Assembly: GCA_017516825.1 (NCBI GenBank)
Contig: JAFXBC010000043.1
Coordinates: forward strand, 4,019-68,018
DNA: 64,000 nt
Reading direction: 5' to 3'
From: Clostridia bacterium
GTDB taxonomy: Bacteria; Bacillota; Clostridia; Oscillospirales; CAG-382
Positions 4,827 through 62,623 of this stretch are shown here, one piece after another. Under the pieces are notes generated by a model, which was not told where the DNA came from, did no database searches, and saw nothing but the letters and a program-made list of their open reading frames with translations. Made by a program: the position numbers and the translations under genes. Positions within the stretch are counted from its first letter, which is position 1; the number at the start of each line of letters is the position of its first letter.

Positions 4827-7202
4827 TTATTCTGCGGGAGACCACTTGCCCAGCAGATAGAGTCTCAACTGGAAGTAGTCCCTCTTGTTCACCTTGCCGC
4901 TACCGTCGATGTCACTTCTGGAAAGCATTTCGTCGGTGAAGTTGATGGGCTTATCCATCAGGAAGGTCTTCAGCTTGAAGTAGTCCAGCTTGCCCACCTT
5001 GCCGTCGCCATCGATGTCGCCGAACGGAACGGTAGGTGCCTTCACAACCTCCAGCAGTGCGCCGTCAACCACGCCGATCTTGCCGGCGTCGTTCTTGATG
5101 GCGCCCTTCACGGTGATGGTATCGCCCACCGCCAGGTCTGCCGCACCCTCGCCGGTGAGGCGGACGCACAGGAGGGGATAGTCCTTCAGCTCGCCCACCT
5201 GAATGGTCACGGAGCCGTCGGCATCCACGGAGAGGACTACGCCGGAAAGTTGGTACGGATGACCGTCGGAAAGGGTCTCGCCCTCTGCCAGACCGTAAGC
5301 CGCACCAAGGATCTCCTCGTCGGTCTCGTAGATCTTAACGGGGTTCTTGTAAGTAAAGCCGGCACCTTCAACGGTTACGTGGCCTGCGGCACCGCGGAGT
5401 GCGATCAGATCAACGTTGTAAAGGGTAATAACGGCACCCTTTTCAATGTCGGTAAGCTTTACGCCGTCTTCCTTGTTGCCGCTGAAGCCGATGATATAGC
5501 CGCCTACGGGACAAACCACGTCGCTCTTGTCGCCATCGGGTCTGCCCAGAACAAAGTGGGTCTCTTCTACCACGCCGTGGGCGTTCACGACGATGACGTA
5601 GAAGTAGTTCATATCCTTGCCTGAGCCGCTGTTACCCAGCGCGGTCAGCTGGTCGATGGTGAGATGGCCACCGGCAAGGATGCAGTGGAAGGAATCGTGG
5701 ATATAGCCTGCGTAGTCCAGAACCAGCGCGTCCCCGGGAAGTGCAACCAACTCGTCGGGCTGAACCTTGATGGCGGGAATGGCTTCGGTGTAGGAATCGC
5801 CGCAGGTACAGGTGTAGGTGCGGACGCCGTCTGCACTGAGGGTGGGCTCCAAGGTGATTGCGGAAGTATAAGCGTGTTCGTGAGCTTTCAGAACGGTAAA
5901 CTCTGCAATGGAGATGAACTCCCAGAAGATCTTGTTGTCCGCAGGGGCGTAGCCCAGAACGGGAGTGCTTGCGCCTACGCTCAGAACCACCCGGAGGTAA
6001 GCCGCCTCGGTGTTTTCGAAGTTGAAGACGTTACAAAGGGTGCCGTGAGTCTCCCCGGAAACCTCGGCAGGTACCAGGTCATATTTGCCCATCTCGGTCC
6101 AGCTTTCGCCGTCGACGGAAACCAGAACGGTTGCTTGTCCCTCGGGATAACCGATCATGACACCGGCACAGTGGTACAGGTCCACCATCAAACCGCTGAT
6201 CGTCTTGACCTCGCCCAGAGCGTAGTGCAGGGTAACGTCCATGCCGGTGGTGGTGCACTGGGTATTCTGAACCAGAACCACTTTGTTGGCACCTACCGCA
6301 GCCCAATCACCGTCGAAGTCGGTCATGCCGTCGGTGAGGAGCTTGTTTTCGTTTACGTTGACGTCGACTTTAACGTTTTCGGGACGCTTCACGCAGGCGT
6401 CCATTACACAGTTTGCGTCGAACTCAATGGTGCCGTTGTAATTCATCAGCTGACCGGTAACGGTGATGGTGTCGCCCACCTTCAGATCGGCAACGCCCTC
6501 ACCCTTCATGCGGTAGCACTGAATGGGCTTATCAGCGAGATCGCCCACGCGGATGGTAACGGTGATATTCTCGTATTCCTCGCTGTAAGACGTGTTGACG
6601 GCAAGCACCACGCCGGTGAGCTGATAAGAATGGCCATTGGAAAGGTACTCTTTGTTTTCAAGCTCGTAGGCGGCATTAACGATCTCCTCGGGAGTCTCGT
6701 AGATGGTCACGGGGGTTACCACGCTGACGGAAGCCTTGGAGCCCTTGGCATCCACAAGACCGGTGGCGGAGGCCAGGCTTTTCATGGACTCCACGTTTGC
6801 GGAAACGGTCACGTTGCCGGTAGCGAGAGGCACGAAGGTCACGGTGAACAGCTTGCCGGAAAGCACGTCGGAAGCGTTGACCGCCGCAACGGTGGCGGAG
6901 CCTTCTTTTACGTTGGTGGCAGTGATGCCTTCACCCTCAAAAACGATTCCACCCCAGGAAAGCAGGGCGGGATCCCAGGTGACCTCGATCTCGTAGCCGG
7001 CAATGGCGGTCATGCCGCCTGCAAGCTCCAGATCAAAGGAAACCTCAAAGGCATCCTTCTCGCCGTCACCGGTGAAGTACGCCCGGTCCGGCATACCCAC
7101 GGAAACCACGGAAACTTCCGCTGCCGTTACGGAAAGAAGGGAAGCGGACGTCATGGTGACGACCATCAGGACTGCCAATAAAAGCGATGTGAATCTTTTC
7201 AT
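4827..7202 (-). CDS. Secreted multidomain protein: cohesin-like module, two OB-like repeats, discoidin/CBM-like module, C-terminal dockerin
   Basis: Signal peptide MKRFTSLLLAVLMVVTMTSA. N-terminal cohesin-like pattern (FEVSFDLELAGGMTAIAGYEIEVTWDPALL ... GKLFTVTFVP). C-terminal double EF-hand dockerin (DIDGDGKVGKLDYFKLKTFL ... DIDGSGKVNKRDYFQLRLYLL). Confidence 0.7.
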   Translation of the reverse strand: MKRFTSLLLAVLMVVTMTSASLLSVTAAEVSVVSVGMPDRAYFTGDGEKDAFEVSFDLELAGGMTAIAGYEIEVTWDPALLSWGGIVFEGEGITATNVKEGSATVAAVNASDVLSGKLFTVTFVPLATGNVTVSANVESMKSLASATGLVDAKGSKASVSVVTPVTIYETPEEIVNAAYELENKEYLSNGHSYQLTGVVLAVNTSYSEEYENITVTIRVGDLADKPIQCYRMKGEGVADLKVGDTITVTGQLMNYNGTIEFDANCVMDACVKRPENVKVDVNVNENKLLTDGMTDFDGDWAAVGANKVVLVQNTQCTTTGMDVTLHYALGEVKTISGLMVDLYHCAGVMIGYPEGQATVLVSVDGESWTEMGKYDLVPAEVSGETHGTLCNVFNFENTEAAYLRVVLSVGASTPVLGYAPADNKIFWEFISIAEFTVLKAHEHAYTSAITLEPTLSADGVRTYTCTCGDSYTEAIPAIKVQPDELVALPGDALVLDYAGYIHDSFHCILAGGHLTIDQLTALGNSGSGKDMNYFYVIVVNAHGVVEETHFVLGRPDGDKSDVVCPVGGYIIGFSGNKEDGVKLTDIEKGAVITLYNVDLIALRGAAGHVTVEGAGFTYKNPVKIYETDEEILGAAYGLAEGETLSDGHPYQLSGVVLSVDADGSVTIQVGELKDYPLLCVRLTGEGAADLAVGDTITVKGAIKNDAGKIGVVDGALLEVVKAPTVPFGDIDGDGKVGKLDYFKLKTFLMDKPINFTDEMLSRSDIDGSGKVNKRDYFQLRLYLLGKWSPAE
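4830..5024 (-). other. Dockerin module
   Basis: Two 22-residue Ca-binding segments, D-x-D-G-x-G-K-V-x-x-x-D-Y. Confidence 0.8.
5043..5339 (-). repeat. Intragenic repeat copy 2 (IYETDEEILGAAYGL ... GDTITVKGAI)
   Basis: See copy 1. Confidence 0.7.
6393..6710 (-). repeat. Intragenic repeat copy 1 (IYETPEEIVNAAYEL ... GDTITVTGQL), OB-fold-like
   Basis: Residues ~165-270 align with residues ~622-720 of the same protein. Confidence 0.7.
6708..7121 (-). other. Cohesin-like beta-sandwich module (residues ~28-165)
   Basis: Resembles the type-I cohesin signature (hydrophobic beta-strands, G-x-x-I-x-G-Y-x-x-x-V-x-W-DP-x-x-L). Called by eye only. Confidence 0.45.
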
Positions 7203-7370: not shown

Positions 7371-10300
7371 TTATGCGGTGATACCGTACGCCTTCAGGGT
7401 GTTTTGCTTCAGCAGAATGTAATCCACGGCGTTGACTCTGCCGTCGCCGTTGATATCCGAGGCCGCCTGCTGGCTCTCGGAAAGGGTGAAGCCGTCCAGC
7501 GCGGAGCGCTTGATCAGCAGATAGTCTGCGGCGCTGACCTTGCCGTTGCCGCTGAGGTCGCCCTTCACGCAAATCGAGAAACTTGCGCCGTCCTTTTCCA
7601 CGGTGGCTCCCGTGCCGACTACGTCTGTACCGGAAAGGGATTTACCGCCCTTGCCGCTGATCTTGACGCCCTCGGAGGAAGCCAGGCTTCCCAGAAGATC
7701 CGCCGCGGTGAGACCGCTCTCGGAGAGGAGGATGCCTCGGTTCAGCAAATAACTGCTTTCCGCCTTCAACGCCAGAGCCTTGTGGCCGTCAACGCTTACG
7801 GTGATTGGCTGGGAATACAGGGTGTAGGAAGCACCGTTGGGAAGCTTGGTTTTGTAAGACAGCAGGAACACCGCCTTGCCGTACTTCAAAGGCGTCACGG
7901 TGCCGTCGTCTCCCAGCTCCACCACGCCGTCGTTCTCCAGGGTGATCACCTTGCTTCTGGAGAGGATATCCTTTTCCGTGCCGCCGTAGGTGACGGAGGT
8001 TGCGGAGAGGGTAATGGTGTCTCCCAGATCCACCCGCAGATCGGTGGGAACGGAAATGGTCTTCACCGTATCCTGGAGATACTGGGGATCGTCTGTGGTC
8101 ATACCGTTGACACCTGCCAGGAACATCTTACAGACCTGTGCGGCCACGGAGTTGGAATAGGTCCAGGTCCACAAGGTCAGACCGCGGTCGTTGGCGTTCC
8201 GCAGGAACTCTGCGGTCAGGTTGCCGTAGTTGATGGCCATGGTGGCGTGGTAGGACAGGGTATCCGTCTGCTTCTGGTAGTAATTGTTCAGGGTGTTCAG
8301 GGTATCGTTTTCCTCGGCAAAGCCGGCGGCGCTGATGAGATACCCGGTGGTAACGTTCATATACTGCTTTGCGGAGGTGAGCTGGTTGGCGTAGAAGCTG
8401 ATGAAGACCACCTGGTTTTCCATGTTGTACTTCTTGATCAGCTCAACGCACTTCCGAGGCAGATCTGCCTGGCCGGACTTGATCTCGCAAAGGAACTTCA
8501 CGTCCTTGCCCTGGAAGGCCTGGAGGATCTCCTCGAAGGTGGGGATATGCTCCTCGGAGAGGGTGCCGTTTCTGTACTTCAGCTTGTATTGCTGCAGCTG
8601 CTGGCTGGTCATGGAAGCGATCTTGCCCTTGCCGTTGGTGGTACGGTCGATGGAATCGTCGTGCATCACCATCACCACGCCGTCGGAGCTGAGATGCACG
8701 TCGATCTCAATGCAATCCGCTCCGGCTTCATAACCGCCCAGACAAGCTGCCAGGGAGTTTTCGGGGAACTTGGTGGAATAGCCTCTGTGGGCCGTCCATA
8801 CGGGAGTGCGGGTCAGAGCGTCGGAAGCGGTGAAGACCTCCGTCTGTACGGCGGCAACCAGCTCCGGGTTATCGCTGACCACGGCGTTGGCGCCGGAGGC
8901 TACCAGCCAAGCCGCCTGGGCAGCGGTCTTGATCCGTGTGCCGAAAGCCCAGACCGCCAGCTCGAATTCCTGCCACTTGGCTACGTATTCCTTGGTGGCC
9001 AGATGATAGGGCACCAGAATGGCCTGGGCGTAAGCCCCCGCCGCCTTGTTATAGTAGTCGTAGATCTCCTCATCGGTAAGGCTTTCCGCCTTGATCCCGG
9101 TGAGATCCAGCACGCCGCGGAGCTTCGTCTTGTTCTTCTCACGGGCGTACTTCACCACCTCCGCATCGGCGGAGATGACCGCGGCCTCGGGGATCTTTGC
9201 GGAGGTCAGCGCGGCGTTCAACGCATCCACCTGGGTCTTGGTATCCAGACGGAACTGGGGGATCACGTTCTTTTCCTTGAACCCCTTCAGGTAGGTCTCG
9301 AATTGCTCCTTGGAGATCTCTCTGCCGGTAAGATCCAGCAAAGCCGCCGCCGTCAGAGCCTCTCCTGCCAGATAGTCCTCAAAATCGCCGTAGGACAGAT
9401 ACGCCTGGGTGGAAACGTAGTTGGTGATATTGGTTTCTCCGCGGTTTACGGAGGAATCCACCAGCAACGGAACCACGGGAGGACGCTCCGGCGCAATTTC
9501 CTGTACGGTAACGCGGATGGAATCCACGTTCATGGTGCCGTAGTTATCGATGATGCCCACGTATCCCTTGGGATGAGCGGAGGCGTTGGTGACGAACATC
9601 ACCGATTCCTCGTCGATGAGGTACTGTACGGTACTGCCGAAGGCCTTCACCGTCAGGTTGTGGAAGTCCTCGTCGGTCATATCCAGCACGTGGGAATTGT
9701 TGTAGATCACGTTCCAGGAATTGGAAGTGGTACGCTCCGCAAACTCCACCGTACTGCTGGTGGTGTTGGCGCGGACGCACATATGGTAGTAGGGGTAGTA
9801 ATTTTTGTTGGCGTTTTCAATGCGGTAGGCGATGGAGCACCATCTGGAGCCGTTGAGCACCTCCGTCTGGTTGGCCATCATGGAAATGGCGTAATCGCCG
9901 AAATCCCCCAGCCACTCCGGAAGAATAGCGCGGTAATAGTCCTTGGCCTGGCTGCCGAAATGCATCACGCCGTCTTCGATGTTCACCAGCTTGGGGTTGA
10001 GAAACTTCCAGCCCTCTGCCTCCAGATCCTCCACCGTGCATTCGAAATCGTTCTCGTAAAGCACGTATTCCGTTTCGTCGGGAAGCTTGGAGACCAGATA
10101 TACCTTCTCGGAGACCTCCCCTGCGGTGGCGGTGAGGGTCAGAACCCCCTTCTCCTCCACCTTGACGGTCTTCACGGTCTCGCCGTCCAGCGTCCAGGTG
10201 ATCTCCTTGGGCTCCAGCCGCTTGCCGTTGTCGGCTTCCACGGTATACAGGGAAAGATCCACCGTAGCGCCCACGTTGGCGGTGATGGCGGGGTTGGTTT

Positions 10301-10418
10301 TCGTAATGATCTTGGCAAGATCCATCCCCATAGCCGCCCCGGTAAGAGGCAGGGATGCAAAGACCGTGAGCAGCAACGCCGCCGTCATCAATGCGGAAAG
10401 AATTCTTCTCATCTTCAT
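7371..10418 (-). CDS. Secreted glycerophosphodiester phosphodiesterase (GDPD) with LamG/DUF1080-like, degenerate GDPD-like and Ig-like modules plus a C-terminal dockerin
   Basis: Signal peptide MKMRRILSALMTAALLLTVFA. GDPD catalytic motifs WTAHRGYSTKFPENSL ... IEIDVHLSSDGVVMVMHDDSIDRTTNG. Dockerin GDLSGNGKVSAADYLLIK ... DINGDGRVNAVDYILLK. Confidence 0.8.
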   Translation of the reverse strand: MKMRRILSALMTAALLLTVFASLPLTGAAMGMDLAKIITKTNPAITANVGATVDLSLYTVEADNGKRLEPKEITWTLDGETVKTVKVEEKGVLTLTATAGEVSEKVYLVSKLPDETEYVLYENDFECTVEDLEAEGWKFLNPKLVNIEDGVMHFGSQAKDYYRAILPEWLGDFGDYAISMMANQTEVLNGSRWCSIAYRIENANKNYYPYYHMCVRANTTSSTVEFAERTTSNSWNVIYNNSHVLDMTDEDFHNLTVKAFGSTVQYLIDEESVMFVTNASAHPKGYVGIIDNYGTMNVDSIRVTVQEIAPERPPVVPLLVDSSVNRGETNITNYVSTQAYLSYGDFEDYLAGEALTAAALLDLTGREISKEQFETYLKGFKEKNVIPQFRLDTKTQVDALNAALTSAKIPEAAVISADAEVVKYAREKNKTKLRGVLDLTGIKAESLTDEEIYDYYNKAAGAYAQAILVPYHLATKEYVAKWQEFELAVWAFGTRIKTAAQAAWLVASGANAVVSDNPELVAAVQTEVFTASDALTRTPVWTAHRGYSTKFPENSLAACLGGYEAGADCIEIDVHLSSDGVVMVMHDDSIDRTTNGKGKIASMTSQQLQQYKLKYRNGTLSEEHIPTFEEILQAFQGKDVKFLCEIKSGQADLPRKCVELIKKYNMENQVVFISFYANQLTSAKQYMNVTTGYLISAAGFAEENDTLNTLNNYYQKQTDTLSYHATMAINYGNLTAEFLRNANDRGLTLWTWTYSNSVAAQVCKMFLAGVNGMTTDDPQYLQDTVKTISVPTDLRVDLGDTITLSATSVTYGGTEKDILSRSKVITLENDGVVELGDDGTVTPLKYGKAVFLLSYKTKLPNGASYTLYSQPITVSVDGHKALALKAESSYLLNRGILLSESGLTAADLLGSLASSEGVKISGKGGKSLSGTDVVGTGATVEKDGASFSICVKGDLSGNGKVSAADYLLIKRSALDGFTLSESQQAASDINGDGRVNAVDYILLKQNTLKAYGITA
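7389..7565 (-). other. Dockerin module
   Basis: Residues ~952-1010 form a duplicated Ca-binding loop and helix. Confidence 0.8.
8073..8807 (-). other. GDPD catalytic TIM-barrel domain
   Basis: H-R ... E-x-D-V-H ... H-D motif series, residues ~538-782. Confidence 0.8.
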
Positions 10419-15029: not shown

Positions 15030-15116
15030 GAACTATGTATTAGGATGACCTTACTTTGGGGGTACAAGGTCAGGTTTAACTTATGCAAAAAAATAATTTA
15101 TATAAGTGAGGATGCT

Positions 15117-18100
15117 ATGAAGACAGTATTCAAAAGACTGATCAGTTCTCTGCTTTTGGTCGTGATGCTTGTTGCAGCTCTTCCCGTATCCATGGTCTCT
15201 GCGGCTTCCGCGGACATCGATTGGGAGTATCTGAAGGACAAGTACGGTCTGACCGATTCGCAGATCGACGCAGCCAAGGACATCGCTGACGACTACGGCC
15301 TGACCCAAGAGCAGGTTGACGCCGTCGAGGAGTATTACGATTCCTTGACTCCCGAGGAACAGGATGAACTGAAGGAAGCCGTTAAGAACGGCGAGATCTC
15401 CGGCACTGACGATCTTCCCGGTACCGAATCCGAGAAGTTCGTGAAGGCTATGTTCATTGCTACCATGAAGCAGGCGGCCAAGGATCTCCTGAACCGTGTT
15501 GTGGAAGCAATGGAGGGTGTTACCGTTAAGAACCCCTTCGACGTTTACCGTGTATATGACGAGAACGGCAACCTGGCAGGTGTAAACTTCGCTCTGCATG
15601 CAGTAGACGACGTTGAGCTCGTAGAGGCTATTAAGGGGATCGTCGAGAATTACGACGTTCTTTCCGCTCTCAAGATGATGGCAGGCGCAGTGCTTCTGTT
15701 CGACGAGGTTTCCGTCAACGGCCACACCGTTTACGACCTGGCCGATCCTTCCGATATCCGTAACGCACTGGTGCAGATCTATCGAGCTAACCCCATCGAG
15801 TTCTCCACCATCGCCAACATGGAAGGCAATACCCTTGCTACTTACAACTTCTCCCTGTCTTGCCGCGGCATCGAGATCAACGTTCCCGTGAACTTTGTTA
15901 TCGATTGCTCCGAGGCAACTCTGAACAAGATCAAATCTGCAGCTGCAAAGCTGGCAGACATCTTCGAAGTCAACGGTGACTTCTCCGAAGATGACGGTAT
16001 CTTCTCCGCTGATCTGGAAGGCATTGTGGATGCTTCTGACTATGTGGACAGCATTCTGAAGTACCTCCTGCCCGCCGCAGTGGCAGACAACTACTCTCTG
16101 GTACGTGACCAGCTCCACACCATGACCTTGGGCGATCTTCTTGAACAGGTCAAGCTGGGGAGACTGCAGTACGTTGCAGAGAAGCTGGGCTACGGCGTTC
16201 AGTTCGAGAAGTTGGTGAACAAGATTGCCGATCACTTCCATCTGAGCCTGGAAGAGCCTAACGACCTCAAGGCTCTCATCGACGTTATCGACGAGAAGAA
16301 CCTGCTTTCCGTATACGCAAAGGCTATTATGCAGAAGGCAGTTGCAGTTCGTACTGCCATCGCCAACGTTGATGCCGCTGATCTGAAGAACGCACTTATC
16401 GCTCTGGATAAGAAGCTTCAGGTTCCCGCTTCCGTTAAGATGCTGCTGGTGCAGGCATACGGTGCCAATGCAGATCTGGTTTCCATCTCCGCTACCAAGC
16501 TGAAGGAAATGCTCCTGGATCTGGAAGCAAAGATCCAGCTTCCCGCAGATTTCGTTGATACCCTGAAGAATGCCATCAGCATTCAGTATATCCAGAACAA
16601 GATGAATAAGACCGTTGGCTCCTTCTACAATGGAGACGGCTCTTACTCCTTCGCCATCGGTAACGGCATTGGCCCCAAGGGCTTCTACAACTATGCAGAG
16701 GCTATTCTGGACAGACTGCTCTCCACCAAGCTGGAGGACAGAATCTCCAAGGCTCTCAAGGCTCATGGCTACGCTACCGTTGAAGATTACGTTGAGGCCG
16801 CTAAGGCAAGATACAACAAGCTCTACACCGGCAAGTACGATCTGGATATGAACTTCACCCTGGTTCTCTTCGACGTATATACTGTTACCTTCGTTGATGA
16901 GAAGGGCAACGTTCTGGATACCCAGAAGGTTGTTGCAGGCGATTCCGCAGAGGATCCCTACTACCACGGCGGCTCTGTTCTCGGCGTTAACTACTCCGCA
17001 GACAAGAGCTACGAGAACGTTCTCGCCGACATGACCGTTGTTCTGACCCGTGAGAACCATAAGCTGGATAAGGTTGAGATCATTAAGGAACCCACCTGCG
17101 ATACCGACGGTCTGAAGAACGTTTACTGTTCCATCGAAGGCTGTGATTACGCAGAGCTGAACGTTCTGATCCCCGCACACGATCACGAGCTCATCGTTGA
17201 CGAGTACTTAGCTCCCGATTGTGAGAACCCCGGCTATATTTATCAGGTATGTAAGTACTGCGGCATCCTCAAGAACGAGGTTCTGGATGCTCTCGGCCAC
17301 ATTTGGGTGGTTGACGTGGAAGTTCTCCCCGATGCTTGCGAGGACGGTTATAGACTGTCTCACTGCGAGCGTTGCGGCGAGGTCAAGCGCGAGAAGCTCC
17401 CCGGCGGCGATCATGATCTTGTAGCCGGCACCCCCGTAGCTCCCACCTGTACCGAAGATGGCTACACTCCCTATACCTGTACCGTTTGCGGCGAGGTCTT
17501 CAATTTGGATATCGTTCCCAAGCTAGGTCATAATATCTATCATGAGACCGTACAGCCCGACTGTACCGAGGATGGGTATGCAATCATCAAGTGTCTGAAC
17601 GGCTGTGGTATCGATGAGAAGCACGTTATTCCCGCTCTGGGTCACCTCTGGGATGACGGTGTTGTCACCACTGATCCCACCTGTACCGACCCCGGCGTGA
17701 AGACCACTACCTGTCTCCGCTGCCGTGAGACCAAGACCGAGGAGATCCCCGCTCTTGGCCATAACCTGACCGAGTTTATCGGCGTTATGTATCCCAATAC
17801 TTGTATCCACTACGGTGTTGATACCTACTTCTGCGATCGTTGCTTCGATTTCGTTGCAGTAGCCACCAACCCCGACGGCGTTTCTCACAGCTTTGAGCAT
17901 GTTGACGGCAAGGCCGCAACCTGCACCCAGCCCGGCTACGACTCCTACGTCTGCCGCTTCTGCGGTATGCCTGAGACCGTGATTATTCCTGCTCTCGGCC
18001 ATGCTTACGACCTGGACAACGGCGTATTCGTAGCTCCCACCTGCACCACCGAGGGTTCTTGGACTTACACCTGTCTGACCTGCGGTGACACCAAGGTTGT

Positions 18101-18725
18101 GATCATTCCCAAGACCGGCCACGTTTACAAGCCCGTTCATACCGAAGGCTTCAACTGCCACAACCCCTCTTACGATGAGAACTTCTGCATCAACTGCGGC
18201 GAGTCCGGTGGCATCGTGAACGTAACCGATATCTACTATCCTCCGCTGAGAAACTACGCGCTGAACATCGCCTTCATCGACGACACTCTCATCGTTAAGA
18301 TCGACAGAATGACCGTTGGCGAGTTCAAGACCAACTTCACCGATCCTATCACCGTTTACAAGAATCAGGAAGCCCTCGATGCTGGCGAAGCAATGGCTGA
18401 CGAAGCATACGTTGGTACCGGTTGCATCGTAGTCTGCGGTGTTTGCGGTGAAGAGTTCAACGTAGCAGTTATCGCTGATATCAACGGCGACGGTAAGGTC
18501 AACTCCATCGACTACATGTACGTGAAGCGTCACGTTCGTGGCAACTACGTGCTGTCCGGCATCCAGAAGGTTGCAGCAGACGTTAACGTTGACGTTAAGG
18601 TTTCCGCTCTGGACTACGCTCGCGTTAAGGCTCACGTAATGTACCGTTACGACGTTTACGAGAACTTCCCCGCATGGGAGTCCATCAAGAACACCATTTA
18701 CTTCAATACCGTCAGCGCTGACTAA
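15117..18725 (+). CDS. Large secreted dockerin protein with helical N-terminal half, Listeria-Bacteroides-type repeat and ten Cys-rich ~38-aa repeats
   Basis: ORF 15045..18725 trimmed to ATG 15117, which follows GTGAGGA. Signal peptide MKTVFKRLISSLLLVVMLVAALPVSMVSAASA. Repeats follow P-x-C-x-x-x-G-x5-C-x2-CG-x6-IPALGH. C-terminal dockerin DINGDGKVNSIDYMYVK. Confidence 0.8.
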   Translation: MKTVFKRLISSLLLVVMLVAALPVSMVSAASADIDWEYLKDKYGLTDSQIDAAKDIADDYGLTQEQVDAVEEYYDSLTPEEQDELKEAVKNGEISGTDDLPGTESEKFVKAMFIATMKQAAKDLLNRVVEAMEGVTVKNPFDVYRVYDENGNLAGVNFALHAVDDVELVEAIKGIVENYDVLSALKMMAGAVLLFDEVSVNGHTVYDLADPSDIRNALVQIYRANPIEFSTIANMEGNTLATYNFSLSCRGIEINVPVNFVIDCSEATLNKIKSAAAKLADIFEVNGDFSEDDGIFSADLEGIVDASDYVDSILKYLLPAAVADNYSLVRDQLHTMTLGDLLEQVKLGRLQYVAEKLGYGVQFEKLVNKIADHFHLSLEEPNDLKALIDVIDEKNLLSVYAKAIMQKAVAVRTAIANVDAADLKNALIALDKKLQVPASVKMLLVQAYGANADLVSISATKLKEMLLDLEAKIQLPADFVDTLKNAISIQYIQNKMNKTVGSFYNGDGSYSFAIGNGIGPKGFYNYAEAILDRLLSTKLEDRISKALKAHGYATVEDYVEAAKARYNKLYTGKYDLDMNFTLVLFDVYTVTFVDEKGNVLDTQKVVAGDSAEDPYYHGGSVLGVNYSADKSYENVLADMTVVLTRENHKLDKVEIIKEPTCDTDGLKNVYCSIEGCDYAELNVLIPAHDHELIVDEYLAPDCENPGYIYQVCKYCGILKNEVLDALGHIWVVDVEVLPDACEDGYRLSHCERCGEVKREKLPGGDHDLVAGTPVAPTCTEDGYTPYTCTVCGEVFNLDIVPKLGHNIYHETVQPDCTEDGYAIIKCLNGCGIDEKHVIPALGHLWDDGVVTTDPTCTDPGVKTTTCLRCRETKTEEIPALGHNLTEFIGVMYPNTCIHYGVDTYFCDRCFDFVAVATNPDGVSHSFEHVDGKAATCTQPGYDSYVCRFCGMPETVIIPALGHAYDLDNGVFVAPTCTTEGSWTYTCLTCGDTKVVIIPKTGHVYKPVHTEGFNCHNPSYDENFCINCGESGGIVNVTDIYYPPLRNYALNIAFIDDTLIVKIDRMTVGEFKTNFTDPITVYKNQEALDAGEAMADEAYVGTGCIVVCGVCGEEFNVAVIADINGDGKVNSIDYMYVKRHVRGNYVLSGIQKVAADVNVDVKVSALDYARVKAHVMYRYDVYENFPAWESIKNTIYFNTVSAD
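17058..18212 (+). repeat. Ten tandem in-frame Cys-rich repeats (C-x4-G-x5-6-C-x2-C ... G-H), putative Zn-knuckle beads
   Basis: Read directly from the translation: HKLDK...PAHDH / ELIVD...ALGH / IWVVD...GGDH / DLVAG...KLGH / NIYHE...ALGH / LWDDG...ALGH / NLTEF...GVSH / SFEHV...ALGH / AYDLD...KTGH / VYKPV...CGESG. Confidence 0.85.
18474..18641 (+). other. Dockerin module (second segment degenerate)
   Basis: ADINGDGKVNSIDYMYVKRHV ... DVNVDVKVSALDYARVKAHVM. Confidence 0.7.
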
Positions 18726-60025: not shown

Positions 60026-62512
60026 TCACTCCCGATCCTTGTACCCGATTCCGTTGTGAAGCACCAAAAGGCCGTCCTCGTCCTCCACGTAGGTATGCTC
60101 CAACGCACCGTGCCAGATCCCGGAAATATCGATAGGCTCGTACCGACGGAACAGCCCGCCGACCATGGGGAAGTACCCCTCGCCCTGGCCGCGATATGTT
60201 ACCAGCTCCCAAACGGAGGTTTTCGTGCCGCCCCAGAAATCCGTCTCAAATCGTACCACGCCCACACCGGGTGCGAACCAGTACTGCTTCTTCCCGTTGC
60301 CGTAGCCCATGCCGCCTCCGAAGCCCTCGGCGGTGTAAGTGACGTGCCTGCAGTTCTCAAACCGCCCTGCGGCCACCTCCACCGTCTCGTCCTCCAGAAC
60401 GTCCATGACGATCTTCACCTCCGGGTTCCATGCGTCGATCCCCTTTCGTTCCATGTGATAGCCGGGGACCCACTCGTCGGACCACAGCGTCCCCAGATCA
60501 TCCTCCAGCCTGTCGAACAGAAAGGAGTAAAGCAGCTTCCAGCCCTGCTCCCCGCAATCTCCCAGGCACTTCCACTCAAAGGAGTAGGAGCGGTTGTCGT
60601 TAAACTTACGCTTTTCCTTGTCCGCTTCCAGATAGCAGAAGAAGTTCCACACTCCCTGCACGGCAGTTTCGGGGTTGAAATCCGGGTTGGTGAGGAGGAT
60701 CCTCTCCATGACCTCCTTCGCCACGGCGGCGTGAGCCTTTTCACGCTCCGTCACCGCCAAAGACACAGCACGGTCGGTATACTTCCGCACGTCGATGGCC
60801 TTTTCGGTGTACCGCTCGAAATACCCGTGCCGCGCCGCAAGGCAGTTCCCGCGGAAGGTGTCGGAATATCCCACGTCCTCTGCCGCAAGGTACGCCGCCA
60901 CGGTGACGGAATCCTTGGTAGCACCGGTAACCTCCAAAACGCGTTCCACCTTCTGGATCACGTCGGGGTCGCCAACGCAACCGTATTCCCAGCGGTTGCC
61001 GGTGGCAAAGGGGAGATAACCTTCACCGCCCTTGATCTCCGCCTTGGTCAAAAACCATTCGTAGCGATTCTGCCGATTCACCTTCTGCTTGACGATGCCC
61101 ACCCCGGGAGCAAAATAGGTCTCCGCATAGGTCAGCCCGTAGTGTTCTCCCTCCAGCACCGTACAAATGCAGTTCTCAAACTTCCCTGCAGGGGTCTCCA
61201 CCGTGAAGTTTCTCCCCTTGAAGGTCATTTTGATCTTCCCGTCGGAGGCCTCCAGAACCTGGCCGTCCTCCATCTCCGGGTCAAGGATCAAGCTGTCCAC
61301 CTGACTGCAGTTCCAGAACTCCGCGCACTCCATATCGTCCCCGCGGGTGTAGCCGGGCTGGGACCAGAAATACCACTTCCCGCCGATGTTCTTGTAAAGC
61401 TCCCCGGTGGGAGTGCCGTGTACGTTGTGAGGGCTGTTCTTGGCAACCGTCTCAAAAGCAATGGCCGCCTTGGCGTTGGCGTAATACAAGTCGCCTGGCT
61501 TTGAGATCTCCATCACCTTGCGGTAGCATTCCAACGCCTTGTCCACTTCTTTTTGACCGTCCACGTAAGCATAGCCCAGCCAGAACCATTCGTAGGCCAG
61601 TGCCTCCACGAATCCGTTCTTCTCCAAAAAGGGGATCTGTTGCTCCCGCATCTGCTCCTTGCTCAGCTTATCGTTCTCATAAGCCATCACGGACTGCATC
61701 ACGTCCTCGTTGTGGCTGTCCAACGCCGCCTGCTTGATGCGGGCAAAGGTCTCGTCGTTCTTTTCTCCGGGGATCCACCAGTATCCTCGCAACAGCACGT
61801 CCGCCAAAGCGTATTGCTTCTCGGGGGATTCCTCTAAGGATTCCACGTTCTTCAAAACCATGCGGTATTCCGCCTCCACCCCGGAGCGGTCGTTTTTGAG
61901 CCCCCAGAGCTTCAGCTGTTCCACCTGGTACATCACCTTTTCCACAAAGGTCATTTCGTCCATTCGTTCGTTCATCACACCGTATTCCTTTCTAAGTAGC
62001 TTTCTTCCCTCGGAAAGCCGCCACTTCACCGTACCGATGGGGAGCCCCAGCTCCTCTGCGATCTCCTTCACGGAAAGCCCTTCAAAATAATGTAGCTCCA
62101 CCGTCTGTCGGATCTTATCGCTGAGCGTTTCCAAAGCCTCCTGCAGATCCATCTGCTGTTCCGCCCTTTCGTCGCGGAGACCCAAAGCCTCCGTATTCTC
62201 CAAAAGATGCAAGCTGATCTCTCCGCAGGTGTTCCTGTAATGGGTCACCACCGCCTTGGCGCAGTTCTTGGCGATGGCGCAGACCCAAGGGCCGAACTTC
62301 TCCCGCTCCCGCAAGCCGTCCAGCTTCATCCAGGCGGAAACGAAAGCGTCCTGGGAGGCGTCCTCCGCAGAGAATTGGTTCCCCGTCACCTTGTACGCCG
62401 TGCCCTTCACGGCCTTTTCGTAACGGCGTACCAGCTCCTCGTAGGCGTATTGCTCCCCCAAAAGGGACAGTTCCACCAGGGTGCCGTCGGATTTGTCTGT
62501 GTACTTGTTCAT
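60026..62512 (-). CDS. ECF-like sigma-70-family factor fused to a ~640-aa soluble C-terminal region with an internal beta-domain duplication
   Basis: ORF trimmed to ATG 62512, which follows GGAGGA. Region 2 (DASQDAFVSAWMKL) and region 4 (LSVKEIAEELGLPIGTVKWRLSEGRKLL). Duplicated block TVE(T/V)(P/A)AG(K/R)FENC ... (Y/W)FAPGVG(I/V)V. Confidence 0.8.
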   Translation of the reverse strand: MNKYTDKSDGTLVELSLLGEQYAYEELVRRYEKAVKGTAYKVTGNQFSAEDASQDAFVSAWMKLDGLREREKFGPWVCAIAKNCAKAVVTHYRNTCGEISLHLLENTEALGLRDERAEQQMDLQEALETLSDKIRQTVELHYFEGLSVKEIAEELGLPIGTVKWRLSEGRKLLRKEYGVMNERMDEMTFVEKVMYQVEQLKLWGLKNDRSGVEAEYRMVLKNVESLEESPEKQYALADVLLRGYWWIPGEKNDETFARIKQAALDSHNEDVMQSVMAYENDKLSKEQMREQQIPFLEKNGFVEALAYEWFWLGYAYVDGQKEVDKALECYRKVMEISKPGDLYYANAKAAIAFETVAKNSPHNVHGTPTGELYKNIGGKWYFWSQPGYTRGDDMECAEFWNCSQVDSLILDPEMEDGQVLEASDGKIKMTFKGRNFTVETPAGKFENCICTVLEGEHYGLTYAETYFAPGVGIVKQKVNRQNRYEWFLTKAEIKGGEGYLPFATGNRWEYGCVGDPDVIQKVERVLEVTGATKDSVTVAAYLAAEDVGYSDTFRGNCLAARHGYFERYTEKAIDVRKYTDRAVSLAVTEREKAHAAVAKEVMERILLTNPDFNPETAVQGVWNFFCYLEADKEKRKFNDNRSYSFEWKCLGDCGEQGWKLLYSFLFDRLEDDLGTLWSDEWVPGYHMERKGIDAWNPEVKIVMDVLEDETVEVAAGRFENCRHVTYTAEGFGGGMGYGNGKKQYWFAPGVGVVRFETDFWGGTKTSVWELVTYRGQGEGYFPMVGGLFRRYEPIDISGIWHGALEHTYVEDEDGLLVLHNGIGYKDRE

Positions 62513-62623
62513 GGCGTCCTCCGTCTTCTTTTTTGAGTACTCGACCATAAGAGGGAAAAAAGATGTCAAAAGGTTGGGTGTGTAACAAAATTTTATCATA
62601 TTTTTTTAAGAAGCGCAAGATTT

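Follow-up and report, generated by a model that had tools for sequence, protein, structure and literature searches.

One gene in the 64,000-nucleotide stretch of Clostridia bacterium DNA analyzed here (the window) encodes a secreted cellulosome-type protein whose ten tandem Cys/His units probably form a metal-stapled, rod-like spacer stalk (a "periscope"), most likely built with zinc. The gene is an ordinary member of a repeat family that is barely described. So far the family has only been predicted, in a single IgA protease whose version is short and irregular, and its trace in the literature is two 2025 papers (PMC12237041, PMC12415215). New here is the canonical ten-unit array, which together with family-wide covariation provides evidence from sequence, independent of structure prediction, for metal sites between units.

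A secreted dockerin protein carries ten Cys/His units

The 1202-aa protein is identical to NCBI MBR4054175.1, a MAG-derived entry annotated as "hypothetical protein [Clostridia bacterium]." Its gene starts at 15117 on five public contigs, compared with 15045 for the listed open reading frame (Table 1). A candidate signal peptide is followed by an orphan head, the ten units, an insert of about 60 aa, and a dockerin that scores 51.1 bits against PF00404 (gathering cut-off, 22.9); this head-stalk-anchor order bears out the original prediction of a stalk ahead of a dockerin. Pfam and NCBIfam searches with the head found no family, its homologues fall into only 2 clusters among 5.8 billion proteins, and its AF2 model (pLDDT 34.9) was unusable.

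The translation of 17058-18212 (+) contains the ten tandem Cys/His units just as they were first reported. The start of that span is correct, but its end falls short, with unit 10 reaching about 18236. The array holds 30 Cys, 7.8% of its residues versus 0.7% elsewhere in the protein, arranged as ten triads that recur every 38-42 aa, each with a His ahead of it. The strict pattern C-x9-C-x2-4-C occurs nine times in the array, against a mean of 0.43 and a maximum of 5 in 20,000 composition-preserving shuffles; unit 3 (C-x8-C) departs from this spacing. The longer regular expression offered initially suits units 2, 4, 6, 8, and 9 well; units 1 (C-x4-C), 3, 5 (C-x3-C), 7, and 10 depart from it. 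Mean identity between the ten units is 30%, and no DNA-level tandem repeat was found in the array. Besides the ligands and Gly/Pro/Thr framework positions, the unit has no conserved surface patch. Across the family the knuckle consensus is C-x2-C-G, and C-x2-C-H is present in 0 of the 10 units of the window protein.

Table 1. Positions of features in the window. Site residue numbers count from the ORF start at 15045; subtract 24 for gene numbering.
Feature	Position	Strand	Basis or remark
Whole gene, 1202-aa secreted dockerin protein	15117..18725	+	Listed ORF, gene calls, cluster look-up
Candidate signal peptide MKTVFKRLISSLLLVVMLVAALPVSMVSAASA	15117..15212	+	By eye: basic N terminus, hydrophobic core, A-x-A end
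Orphan N-terminal head, 615 aa	15213..17057	+	Without Pfam/NCBIfam match
Putative N-terminal end site: H672, C695, C700; E670 possible fourth ligand	17052..17144	+	Homologue caps
Ten units of ~38 aa	17058..18236	+	Cys/His pattern; AF2 of units 4-6
Unit starts	17058, 17184, 17298, 17412, 17529, 17643, 17760, 17886, 18000, 18120	+	Cys/His pattern
Nine putative inter-unit Cys3His sites, Cys1(i)/His/Cys2(i+1)/Cys3(i+1)	17097..18197	+	Homologue covariation and strand topology
Putative site 1: C685/H714/C736/C739			
Putative site 2: C726/H752/C774/C777			
Putative site 3: C765/H790/C812/C815			
Putative site 4: C802/H829/C850/C854			
Putative site 5: C840/H867/C890/C893			
Putative site 6: C880/H906/C930/C933			
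Putative site 7: C920/H948/C970/C973			
Putative site 8: C960/H986/C1010/C1013			
Putative site 9: C1000/H1026/C1048/C1051			
Segment of 62 aa, unit 10 to Cys cluster	18237..18422	+	Resembles small pre-dockerin domain of homologue P0183
Cys cluster C1127-x3-C1131-x2-C1134, just ahead of dockerin	18423..18446	+	Candidate terminal cap
Type I dockerin, aa 1144-1198	18474..18638	+	Pfam PF00404, E 1.5e-13
Single unit HEHAYTSAITLEPTLSADGVRTYTCTCGDSYTEAIPAI in dockerin protein 4827-7202 (-)	5769..5882	-	Sequence comparison

Distribution and prior description of the repeat

Sequence searches of Pfam, NCBIfam, and the PDB returned neither a family model nor a solved-structure match for the module, in agreement with the earlier remark that the repeat could not be assigned to a named family. 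At E <= 1e-3 the module matches 76,576 clusters (50% identity), and at E <= 1e-30 it matches 20,575; hosts are mostly gut and rumen Clostridia, the longest arrays have 66 units, and host proteins reach 7,583 aa. Homologues combine the module with cell-surface domains: cohesin, dockerin, SLH, Big_2, CAP, and LRR_5. The array had been thought an unusual design, which does not fit a module found in tens of thousands of clusters beside such domains. Nor is the repeat new: in 2025, work on an IgA protease (PMC12237041, PMC12415215) had already presented a short form of it as a putative, previously undescribed zinc-binding fold. Profile A1 matched the IgA protease chain 9qa6_A at E 0.0012, exactly over the ZBD1 and ZBD2 regions, and a single-unit HMM scored 41.4 bits (E 9e-10) against ZBD1 and 30.8 bits (E 2e-6) against ZBD2. 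On sequence grounds, the repeat is homologous to these predicted zinc-binding rod domains (CTD2/CTD4) of the Thomasclavelia ramosa enzyme.

A sister family has the same head (61% identity) and the same repeat, with a transmembrane anchor in place of the dockerin. Its complete variants of 795, 833, 871/872, and 909/910 aa have 5, 6, 7, and 8 units, length classes at >90% identity that could partly reflect assembly collapse of near-identical units. In the 90% cluster of the window gene itself, 11 of 11 members are 1202 aa long, and thus there is no length variation for this gene.

Covariation points to metal sites between units

The original prediction had the three Cys and the terminal His of one repeat form a single bead. 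AF2 modeled units 4-6 (17400-17774, 36-sequence alignment) with a pLDDT of 95.3, and DSSP assigned three short strands per unit, short loops, and no helix; a Foldseek search of the model against the PDB returned nothing at E < 0.001. Each unit is predicted to be a three-stranded antiparallel up-and-down sheet, and the units would be arranged end to end. The prediction is confidently all-beta. Cys1 sits in the loop between beta1 and beta2, and C-x2-C at the turn from beta2 to beta3; with seven strand residues between them, Cys1 and Cys2 of one unit cannot share a site.

Ligand loss in homologues was scored in 1,181 units from the best 120 homologues and the window protein (1,223 units parsed, protein-end units left out). 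Loss of Cys1 in unit i accompanies loss of the following His (odds ratio [OR] 67, p 3e-60), and Cys3 is lost together with the His that precedes it (OR 32, p 4e-35), while Cys1 and Cys3 within one unit are lost independently (OR 0.93). We then considered 845 unique junctions, tracking the preceding unit's Cys1, the linker His, and Cys3. All three ligands are present in 677 junctions, and Cys3 alone is replaced in 84, nearly always by C-x-[N/R/H]-D-x-x-H, a ligand swap. All three are absent in 34, with both Cys1 and His replaced by Tyr; co-loss events share ancestry, and these 34 junctions seem to go back to a few inherited events. In a second, more canonical homologue set, His loss is almost absent.

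A larger set of 4,391 junctions from 267 homologous proteins revealed compensation. The knuckle variant C-x2-H-x2-C occurs there in 28 cases, in 13 proteins from different 50% clusters. The preceding unit's Cys1 is absent in 28/28 of these, and none of the 4,201 junctions retaining that Cys1 has the variant (p 9e-40). The variant is not associated with Cys1 of its own unit. This compensation and the end caps described below are more independent evidence than co-loss. Strand topology and covariation together suggest that four ligands converge at the joint, such that each metal site would combine Cys1 from unit i with the His of the linker and both knuckle Cys of unit i+1. The co-loss of His and Cys and the ligand swaps uphold the earlier claim that these residues act as metal ligands and not as disulfide partners; the single bead is not supported, since Cys1 pairs with the following His and the C-x2-C of the next unit and varies independently of the C-x2-C in its own.

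Array ends

In homologues from many lineages, a C-x-H, H-x-H, or C-x2-C motif stands ahead of the first unit, and the last unit either lacks Cys1 and the following His or is closed by a G-H-x5-9-C-x2-C cap. Terminal units that drop Cys1 and the trailing His still retain C-x2-C, and G-H-x5-9-C-x2-C-G closes homologue arrays directly ahead of a dockerin. As sequence patterns, these end caps fit the inter-unit site model.

Both ends of the array in the window protein are imperfect. The N-terminal end site has no Cys from a preceding unit, and E-N-H replaces the Cys/His cap. At the other end, unit 10 keeps its Cys1 (C1038, nt 18156) without a canonical partner; conceivably, the C1127/C1131/C1134 cluster is a cap that completes the last site with C1038.

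A proposed metal-stapled stalk and its alternatives

We propose that successive three-stranded sheets stack end to end with one tetrahedral metal, most probably Zn(II), at each joint. Unit i would supply Cys1 from its beta1-beta2 loop, the linker following beta3 the conserved His, and unit i+1 the Cys2-x2-Cys3 knuckle at its beta2-beta3 turn. Because the ligands would be drawn from two neighboring units, every unit would serve two sites, and ligands of neighboring sites would interleave along the chain, which should lock the joints. Complete Cys3His joints would number nine in the window protein, besides one end site at the N terminus, and there may be a terminal Cys4 site as well. At about 3.7 nm per unit, a value taken from the published 110 Å model of a three-subunit IgA-protease domain (PMC12237041), the rod would measure roughly 35 nm. 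It would keep the 615-aa head distant from the dockerin and therefore from the scaffoldin or cell surface into which the dockerin plugs. We infer the identity of the metal, the rigidity and estimated length of the rod, and its role as a spacer, a role that leaves room for an added binding function.

Could each 38-aa repeat instead fold alone around its own three Cys and terminal His, giving a flexible string of independent zinc-knuckle beads? The counts agree, with ten triads and ten preceding His, and homologues draw faint matches, below threshold, from the zinc-ribbon and rubredoxin models of Pfam. We nevertheless find such beads highly improbable, as Cys1 and Cys3 of one unit vary independently and track the following and preceding His, respectively, C-x2-H-x2-C offsets only loss of the preceding unit's Cys1, terminal units keep C-x2-C without Cys1 or a trailing His, and a strand parts Cys1 from Cys2 in the AF2 model. 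A classical zinc ribbon or rubredoxin-type domain was rejected on similar grounds (one knuckle per unit, Cys1 decoupled from its own knuckle, no Pfam model at threshold), as was a C2H2 zinc finger (no helix in the AF2 model, a single His per unit, secretion with a dockerin); the PDB and Pfam C2H2 matches are sub-threshold composition matches. A metal-free, disulfide-stabilized repeat of the EGF-like type would suit a Cys-rich region of an extracellular protein, but is very unlikely here given the odd number of Cys (three per unit), the near-invariant His that covaries with Cys, and replacements of Cys by Asp/His or His that follow ligand logic rather than disulfide logic. Moreover, the hosts are strictly anaerobic gut Clostridia, and the homologous IgA protease showed no disulfides and required reducing agent for monodispersity (PMC12237041).

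It is also conceivable that the rod surface or certain units bind a carbohydrate, host molecule, or protein, which would be compatible with a metal-stapled fold. Unit surfaces are highly variable, as the low mean identity indicates, and homologues pair the module with the adhesin-type domains LRR_5, Big_2, and CAP. An extra function is left open in PMC12415215, and the C-terminal domains of the IgA protease hamper IgA cleavage in vitro (PMC12237041). However, those domains are dispensable for catalysis (PMC12237041), the unit lacks a conserved patch outside its ligands and framework, and the way the sister family gains and loses whole units suits length tuning better than a specific site; we regard an adhesive array as unlikely. 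That the array is a metal sensor or a redox or electron-transfer wire, with Fe or another redox metal at Cys3His or heme at C-x2-C, seems extremely improbable. Its C-x2-C-G knuckles are rubredoxin-like and one homologue is labeled "cytochrome c2" by one source, but the array is extracellular on a dockerin protein, and C-x2-C-H occurs in 45 of the 4,201 junctions keeping the preceding Cys1. With a C-x2-C-G consensus, and C-x2-C-H rare in homologues and missing from all ten window units, a multiheme cytochrome c was rejected. Electron tunneling over ~3.7 nm is far beyond established range limits. Adjacent sites would lie about that far apart (110 Å per three subunits, PMC12237041), which makes a wire unlikely.

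Returning to the metal-stapled stalk, we offer a broader proposal that we ourselves consider doubtful: extracellular rods of this kind would make up a very large, uncurated superfamily, with the repeat as its canonical form and an open-ended chain of interleaved Cys3His zinc sites as their only "core." How stiff the rods are and how far they reach would in that case depend on the supply of zinc, and gut Clostridia would have, for their cellulosomal and surface proteins, a periscope tunable by zinc that could, for example, be sensitive to host zinc sequestration. The last site might clamp the pre-dockerin insert (C1038 with C1127, C1131, and C1134).

Comparison with known systems

The array and ZBD1/ZBD2 of the IgA protease (M64, UniProt Q9AES2) share significant sequence similarity, three-stranded sheets predicted to lie end to end, Cys/His sites predicted at sheet interfaces, and a location with a functional head on one side and a cell anchor on the other. 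The ZBDs also follow the same cap rules, with H-x-H on the first unit and terminal units without Cys1. In AF3 models, ZBD1/ZBD2 are three-stranded up-and-down sheets, with putative Zn sites (2His+2Cys or 3Cys+1His) predicted at subdomain interfaces and a distant zinc-ribbon resemblance in subdomain I (PMC12237041); by SAXS, CTD2 is a fully extended rod, and a metal-associated periscope domain was proposed (PMC12415215). The ZBDs differ in having only two to three irregular units with mostly 2His+2Cys sites, and in being split by an Ig-like domain, whereas the window array has ten regular units, canonical Cys3His joints, and a dockerin anchor; in both, the metal is predicted only.

The G5/E repeats of the periscope proteins SasG and Aap (PMC9704523; discussed in PMC12415215) resemble the proposed stalk in being tandem beta-sheet units, one layer thick and with no large hydrophobic core. 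They form a long rod that projects a head from the surface, vary in length by whole repeats (as the length classes of the sister family may also do), and in Aap involve zinc (PMC9704523; PMC12415215). They match the window repeat in neither sequence nor fold, and the zinc of Aap links one protomer to another by way of His/Asp/Glu sites on the surface, whereas the Cys/His sites of the window protein are predicted to be intramolecular and fully coordinated.

The zinc ribbon of the TFIIS C-terminal domain also has a three-stranded antiparallel sheet and a C-x2-C knuckle at a hairpin turn, but there the two knuckles of a single domain provide all four ligands; the putative window site combines a knuckle with the previous unit's loop Cys and the linker His. 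In the cross-brace or interleaved zinc sites of RING domains and the DnaJ cysteine-rich domain, ligands of neighboring sites interleave and the metals tie non-adjacent segments. Those are closed two-metal intracellular domains, whereas the interleaving in the window array would be open-ended and extracellular.

The module is among the commonest unannotated surface-protein building blocks in gut and rumen Clostridia, and its cap and ligand-swap rules could seed a curated family. For cellulosome biology it would supply a rigid spacer on cohesin-bearing and dockerin-bearing proteins alike, and for protein design a very thin rod that may be stabilized almost entirely by metal staples.

A single unit in a neighboring protein

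The window holds one further unit on the minus strand, in a protein previously taken to be a cohesin/dockerin protein; the dockerin is there, but Pfam finds no cohesin. The unit had been spotted correctly and called degenerate. It lacks Cys1 and the trailing His, but is better described as a self-contained one-site version with an H-x-H cap and a C-x-C knuckle.

An array of diverged Cys/His repeats in a dockerin protein

The segment at 17058-18212 (+) had been proposed to encode tandem Cys/His repeats, and this observation is real. The translation matches the sequence originally quoted, and it contains ten Cys triads of the form C-x9-C-x2-C, with small variants, recurring at a period of 38 to 42 aa with a His ahead of each. 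Strict matches to the triad pattern number 9, far more than in 20,000 shuffles (mean, 0.43; maximum, 5). The array holds 30 Cys, or 7.8% of its residues, compared to 0.7% in the rest of the protein. With a mean identity of 30% and no tandem repeat detected by TRF at the DNA level in the array region, the units are old and diverged.

The repeats lie inside a single ORF (15045-18725), for which gene callers on five public contigs place the start at 15117. The resulting 1202-aa protein is exactly NCBI MBR4054175.1, labeled "hypothetical protein" from a Clostridia MAG. The longest ORF begins 24 codons upstream of the called start (15045-15116, +), the signal peptide starts at 15117, and a 1226-aa form is called in one Logan record. 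The type I dockerin is the sole genuine Pfam or NCBIfam match on the protein; the remaining hits are spurious and sub-threshold. A contig scan of GTDB species representatives with the whole 1202-aa protein found no relatives.

Features of the repeat-bearing protein
Feature	Position	Strand	Basis
Signal peptide	15117-15212	+	Sequence
Head region, 615 aa	15213-17057	+	
Ten units	17058-18236	+	
62-aa segment	18237-18422	+	
C-x3-C-x2-C cluster	18423-18446	+	
Type I dockerin	18474-18638	+	PF00404, E 1.5e-13

No family match to the head was found in Pfam or NCBIfam, and an AF2 prediction made with three sequences is unusable as a model (pLDDT 34.9). Short helical repeats, "YGLT(D/Q)xQ(I/V)DA," are present at its start. 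Homologues of the head form only two clusters among 5.8 billion proteins. These clusters are a sister family (P0271 and cluster members P0299-P0312) with a 61% identical head and the repeat in common, and they carry a C-terminal transmembrane anchor where the window protein has its dockerin. Complete variants in the sister family are 795, 833, 871/872, and 909/910 aa long, corresponding to 5, 6, 7, and 8 units in steps of exact 38-aa units, which could reflect either real variation or assembly collapse of near-identical units. Length variation is absent from the window gene's own cluster.

The repeat is abundant but uncurated

The original prediction could not place the repeat in a named family, and our searches of Pfam, NCBIfam, and PDB sequences likewise returned no match. 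Apparent Pfam matches in homologues (DUF6911, RUBY_RBDX, zf-CHY, A24_N_bact, and others) were rejected because their scores are sums over fragments, none of which passes by itself. For the region against PDB sequences, phmmer returned only weak C2H2 composition matches, which were also rejected. At E < 1e-3, a word-indexed search reached its candidate limit with more than 5,127 proteins. An exhaustive three-unit profile search over 1.84 billion 50%-identity representatives matched 76,576 clusters at E <= 1e-3 (the weakest tier, in which some eukaryotic C2H2 arrays may be present), 50,774 at E <= 1e-10, and 20,575 at E <= 1e-30. The module is common, contrary to the earlier suggestion of an unusual design.

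The 150 best-scoring representatives have arrays of up to 66 units (median, 31), and the longest of these proteins has 7,583 aa. The consensus is H-x-W-x-x-G-x-V-T-x-x-P-T-C-T-E-x-G-x-K-T-Y-T-C-x-x-C-G-x-T-K-T-E-x-I-P-A-L-G-H, and the accompanying domains in homologues are cohesin, dockerin, SLH, Big_2, CAP, and BspA-type LRR. When a canonical three-unit peptide was searched against genome contigs, nearly all of the 80 loci found were in gut or rumen Clostridia MAGs (Oscillospiraceae, Lachnospiraceae, Christensenellaceae, Acutalibacteraceae, and others), with one isolate, Sellimonas catena. The same repeat fold is present in BFVD A0A8S5QLF9 and A0A8S5SUG5 (Foldseek E 9e-10 and 4e-6, respectively). 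Both derive from phage-labeled metagenomic contigs; the first of the pair to be noted has an SLH domain or is a leucine-rich repeat protein, and the second is the other of these two kinds. They may be bacterial surface proteins that are carried by prophages or were mis-binned.

A profile of the repeat (A1) run against PDB sequences matched three stretches of chain 9qa6_A, "IgA protease" (E 0.0012), and a single-unit HMM scored 41.4 bits (E 9e-10) and 30.8 bits (E 2e-6) on these stretches. The matched domains have been named ZBD1 and ZBD2, and in AF3 models they are elongated strings of three-stranded up-and-down sheets measuring ~110 Å per three subdomains (PMC12237041). The same domains are named CTD2 and CTD4 in a separate study (PMC12415215). 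In both papers, metal in these domains is unmeasured and family size is unmentioned. Full-text searching retrieved no papers with the motif "IPALGH," literature on periscope, zinc, and cysteine tandem repeats yielded nothing besides the IgA protease work, and an EMBO J paper on M64 peptidases does not mention these domains. No curated family exists for the repeat, and a short form was described in 2025, by prediction only. The window gene adds a member to a kind of rod that was already known but is barely characterized and experimentally unvalidated.

Covariation and array ends place the predicted metal sites between units

We designate the three Cys of a unit Cys1, Cys2, and Cys3; the C-x2-C formed by the last two is the knuckle, and the conserved His lies in the linker at the junction between successive units i and i+1. 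An AF2 model of units 4 to 6 (17400-17774; 36-row alignment; mean pLDDT, 95.3; pTM, 0.64) has three short strands in each unit, with Cys1 four residues ahead of strand 2, Cys2 at the end of strand 2, Cys3 in the turn toward strand 3, and the His in the linker toward the following unit. In this model Cys1 and Cys2 of one unit cannot share a metal, because a seven-residue strand separates them. If a simple meander is assumed, Cys1 and the following His would lie at one end of the sheet and the preceding His and the knuckle at the opposite end, a placement that predicts sites between units.

We examined the co-loss of ligands in 1,181 units from the 120 best homologues and the window protein (1,223 parsed, minus protein-end units). 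When Cys1 of unit i is lost, the following His tends to be lost as well (OR 67, p 3e-60), with no such tie to the preceding His. Losses of Cys3 accompany losses of the preceding His (OR 32, p 4e-35), and Cys1 and Cys3 of the same unit are independent (OR 0.93). Zinc sites of the kind originally proposed within each repeat are probably correct, but their register is not: Cys1 is lost together with the following His and independently of its own Cys3. All three tracked ligands (preceding-unit Cys1, linker His, and Cys3) are retained in 677 of 845 unique junctions. In another 84, Cys3 alone is replaced, nearly always by C-x-[N/R/H]-D-x-x-H, and 34 lack all three, with Tyr in place of Cys1 and of the His.

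Because these 34 junctions look like a few inherited events, we sought further, independent evidence. The 150 most canonical giant proteins had too few ligand losses to rerun the co-loss test, and a compensation test was used in its place on a pooled set of 4,391 junctions from 267 proteins, 91% of them canonical. A variant knuckle, C-x2-H-x2-C, is present at 28 junctions, which are spread over 13 proteins of different 50% clusters. The preceding-unit Cys1 is missing in all 28 cases, whereas the variant occurs in none of the 4,201 junctions that keep Cys1 (p 9e-40); it is unlinked to Cys1 of its own unit. Other recurrent variants among homologues P0121 to P0270 are C-x-N-D-x-x-H for C-x2-C, C-x-C knuckles, and C-x11-C, in which strand 2 is two residues longer.

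Array ends follow the same register. In terminal units of many lineages, Cys1 is changed to S, E, Y, D, T, P, or R and the trailing His is absent, and other arrays end in a short cap, G-H-x5-9-C-x2-C, immediately ahead of a dockerin, CAP domain, or membrane anchor. C-x-H, H-x-H, or C-x2-C precedes first units. Scoring array ends simply for a His did not help to assign the His to triads, as one is usual at both ends. Taken together, co-loss, compensation, and array ends indicate a site composed of Cys1 of unit i (or the knuckle His), the linker His, and Cys2 and Cys3 of unit i+1. Interface sites in the IgA protease ZBDs were predicted from models; covariation in the repeat family agrees with them and is independent of structure prediction.

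A metal-stapled stalk is the best-supported reading

We considered what kind of structure these sites could support. Metal beads held within units, one per repeat, are contradicted by both the cross-unit covariation and the seven-residue strand between Cys1 and Cys2 in the AF2 model. Disulfide-linked Cys with no metal are unlikely given the odd number of Cys per unit (three), the covariation of His with Cys, ligand swaps at Cys positions, and the anaerobic hosts; the IgA protease data agree. A redox wire or heme site is also unlikely, as the sites would be ~3.7 nm apart and the knuckle is C-x2-C-G.

The array is best read as a metal-stapled stalk, the metal probably being zinc, and it may have a binding role in addition. 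The window protein would contain nine complete Cys3His joints and an N-terminal end site formed by H672, C695, C700, and perhaps E670 (residues numbered from the ORF start at 15045; subtract 24 for gene numbering). At the other end, C1038 (Cys1 of unit 10; 18156-18158, +) has no canonical partner, and immediately ahead of the dockerin lies the C1127-x3-C1131-x2-C1134-G cluster, which is similar to the terminal caps in homologues. In one homologue, P0183, the last Cys1 is lost and the equivalent pre-dockerin segment is without Cys. From these sequence features, C1038 and C1127/C1131/C1134 are a possible closing Cys4 site, which would loop out the 62-aa segment. Based on the published model length, the rod would extend ~35 nm at ~3.7 nm per unit. 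The head-stalk-anchor order, the transmembrane anchor of the sister family, and its 5- to 8-unit variants fit a spacer of tunable length. The module would be a very abundant, uncurated, and experimentally unvalidated rod whose metal ligands interleave, and it may be of interest to specialists on surface proteins, cellulosomes, and metalloproteins.

Other dockerin proteins and loci in the window

Three dockerin proteins are encoded in the window, at 4827-7202 (-), 7371-10418 (-), and 15117-18725 (+), and two of the three carry the repeat module. The additional copy predicted at 5769-5882 (-) was confirmed. In its host (4827-7202), Pfam detects a dockerin (E 4.8e-8) together with a weak signal for F5/8 type C, but not the cohesin also attributed to this protein. 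Its single unit has an H-E-H cap and a C-T-C knuckle and lacks Cys1 and the trailing His, an arrangement of motifs that fits a one-site version of the inter-unit site.

The 1015-aa protein at 7371-10418 (-) combines GDPD (glycerophosphodiester phosphodiesterase, E 8e-42) with a dockerin, without the Cys/His repeat, and is a non-glycoside-hydrolase enzyme carrying a cellulosome-type anchor. Elsewhere, an 857-aa ORF at 60026-62599 (-) has N-terminal ECF-type sigma-70 regions 2 and 4 followed by a long extension with a sub-threshold DUF3108-like signal, which makes it unusually long for a sigma factor.
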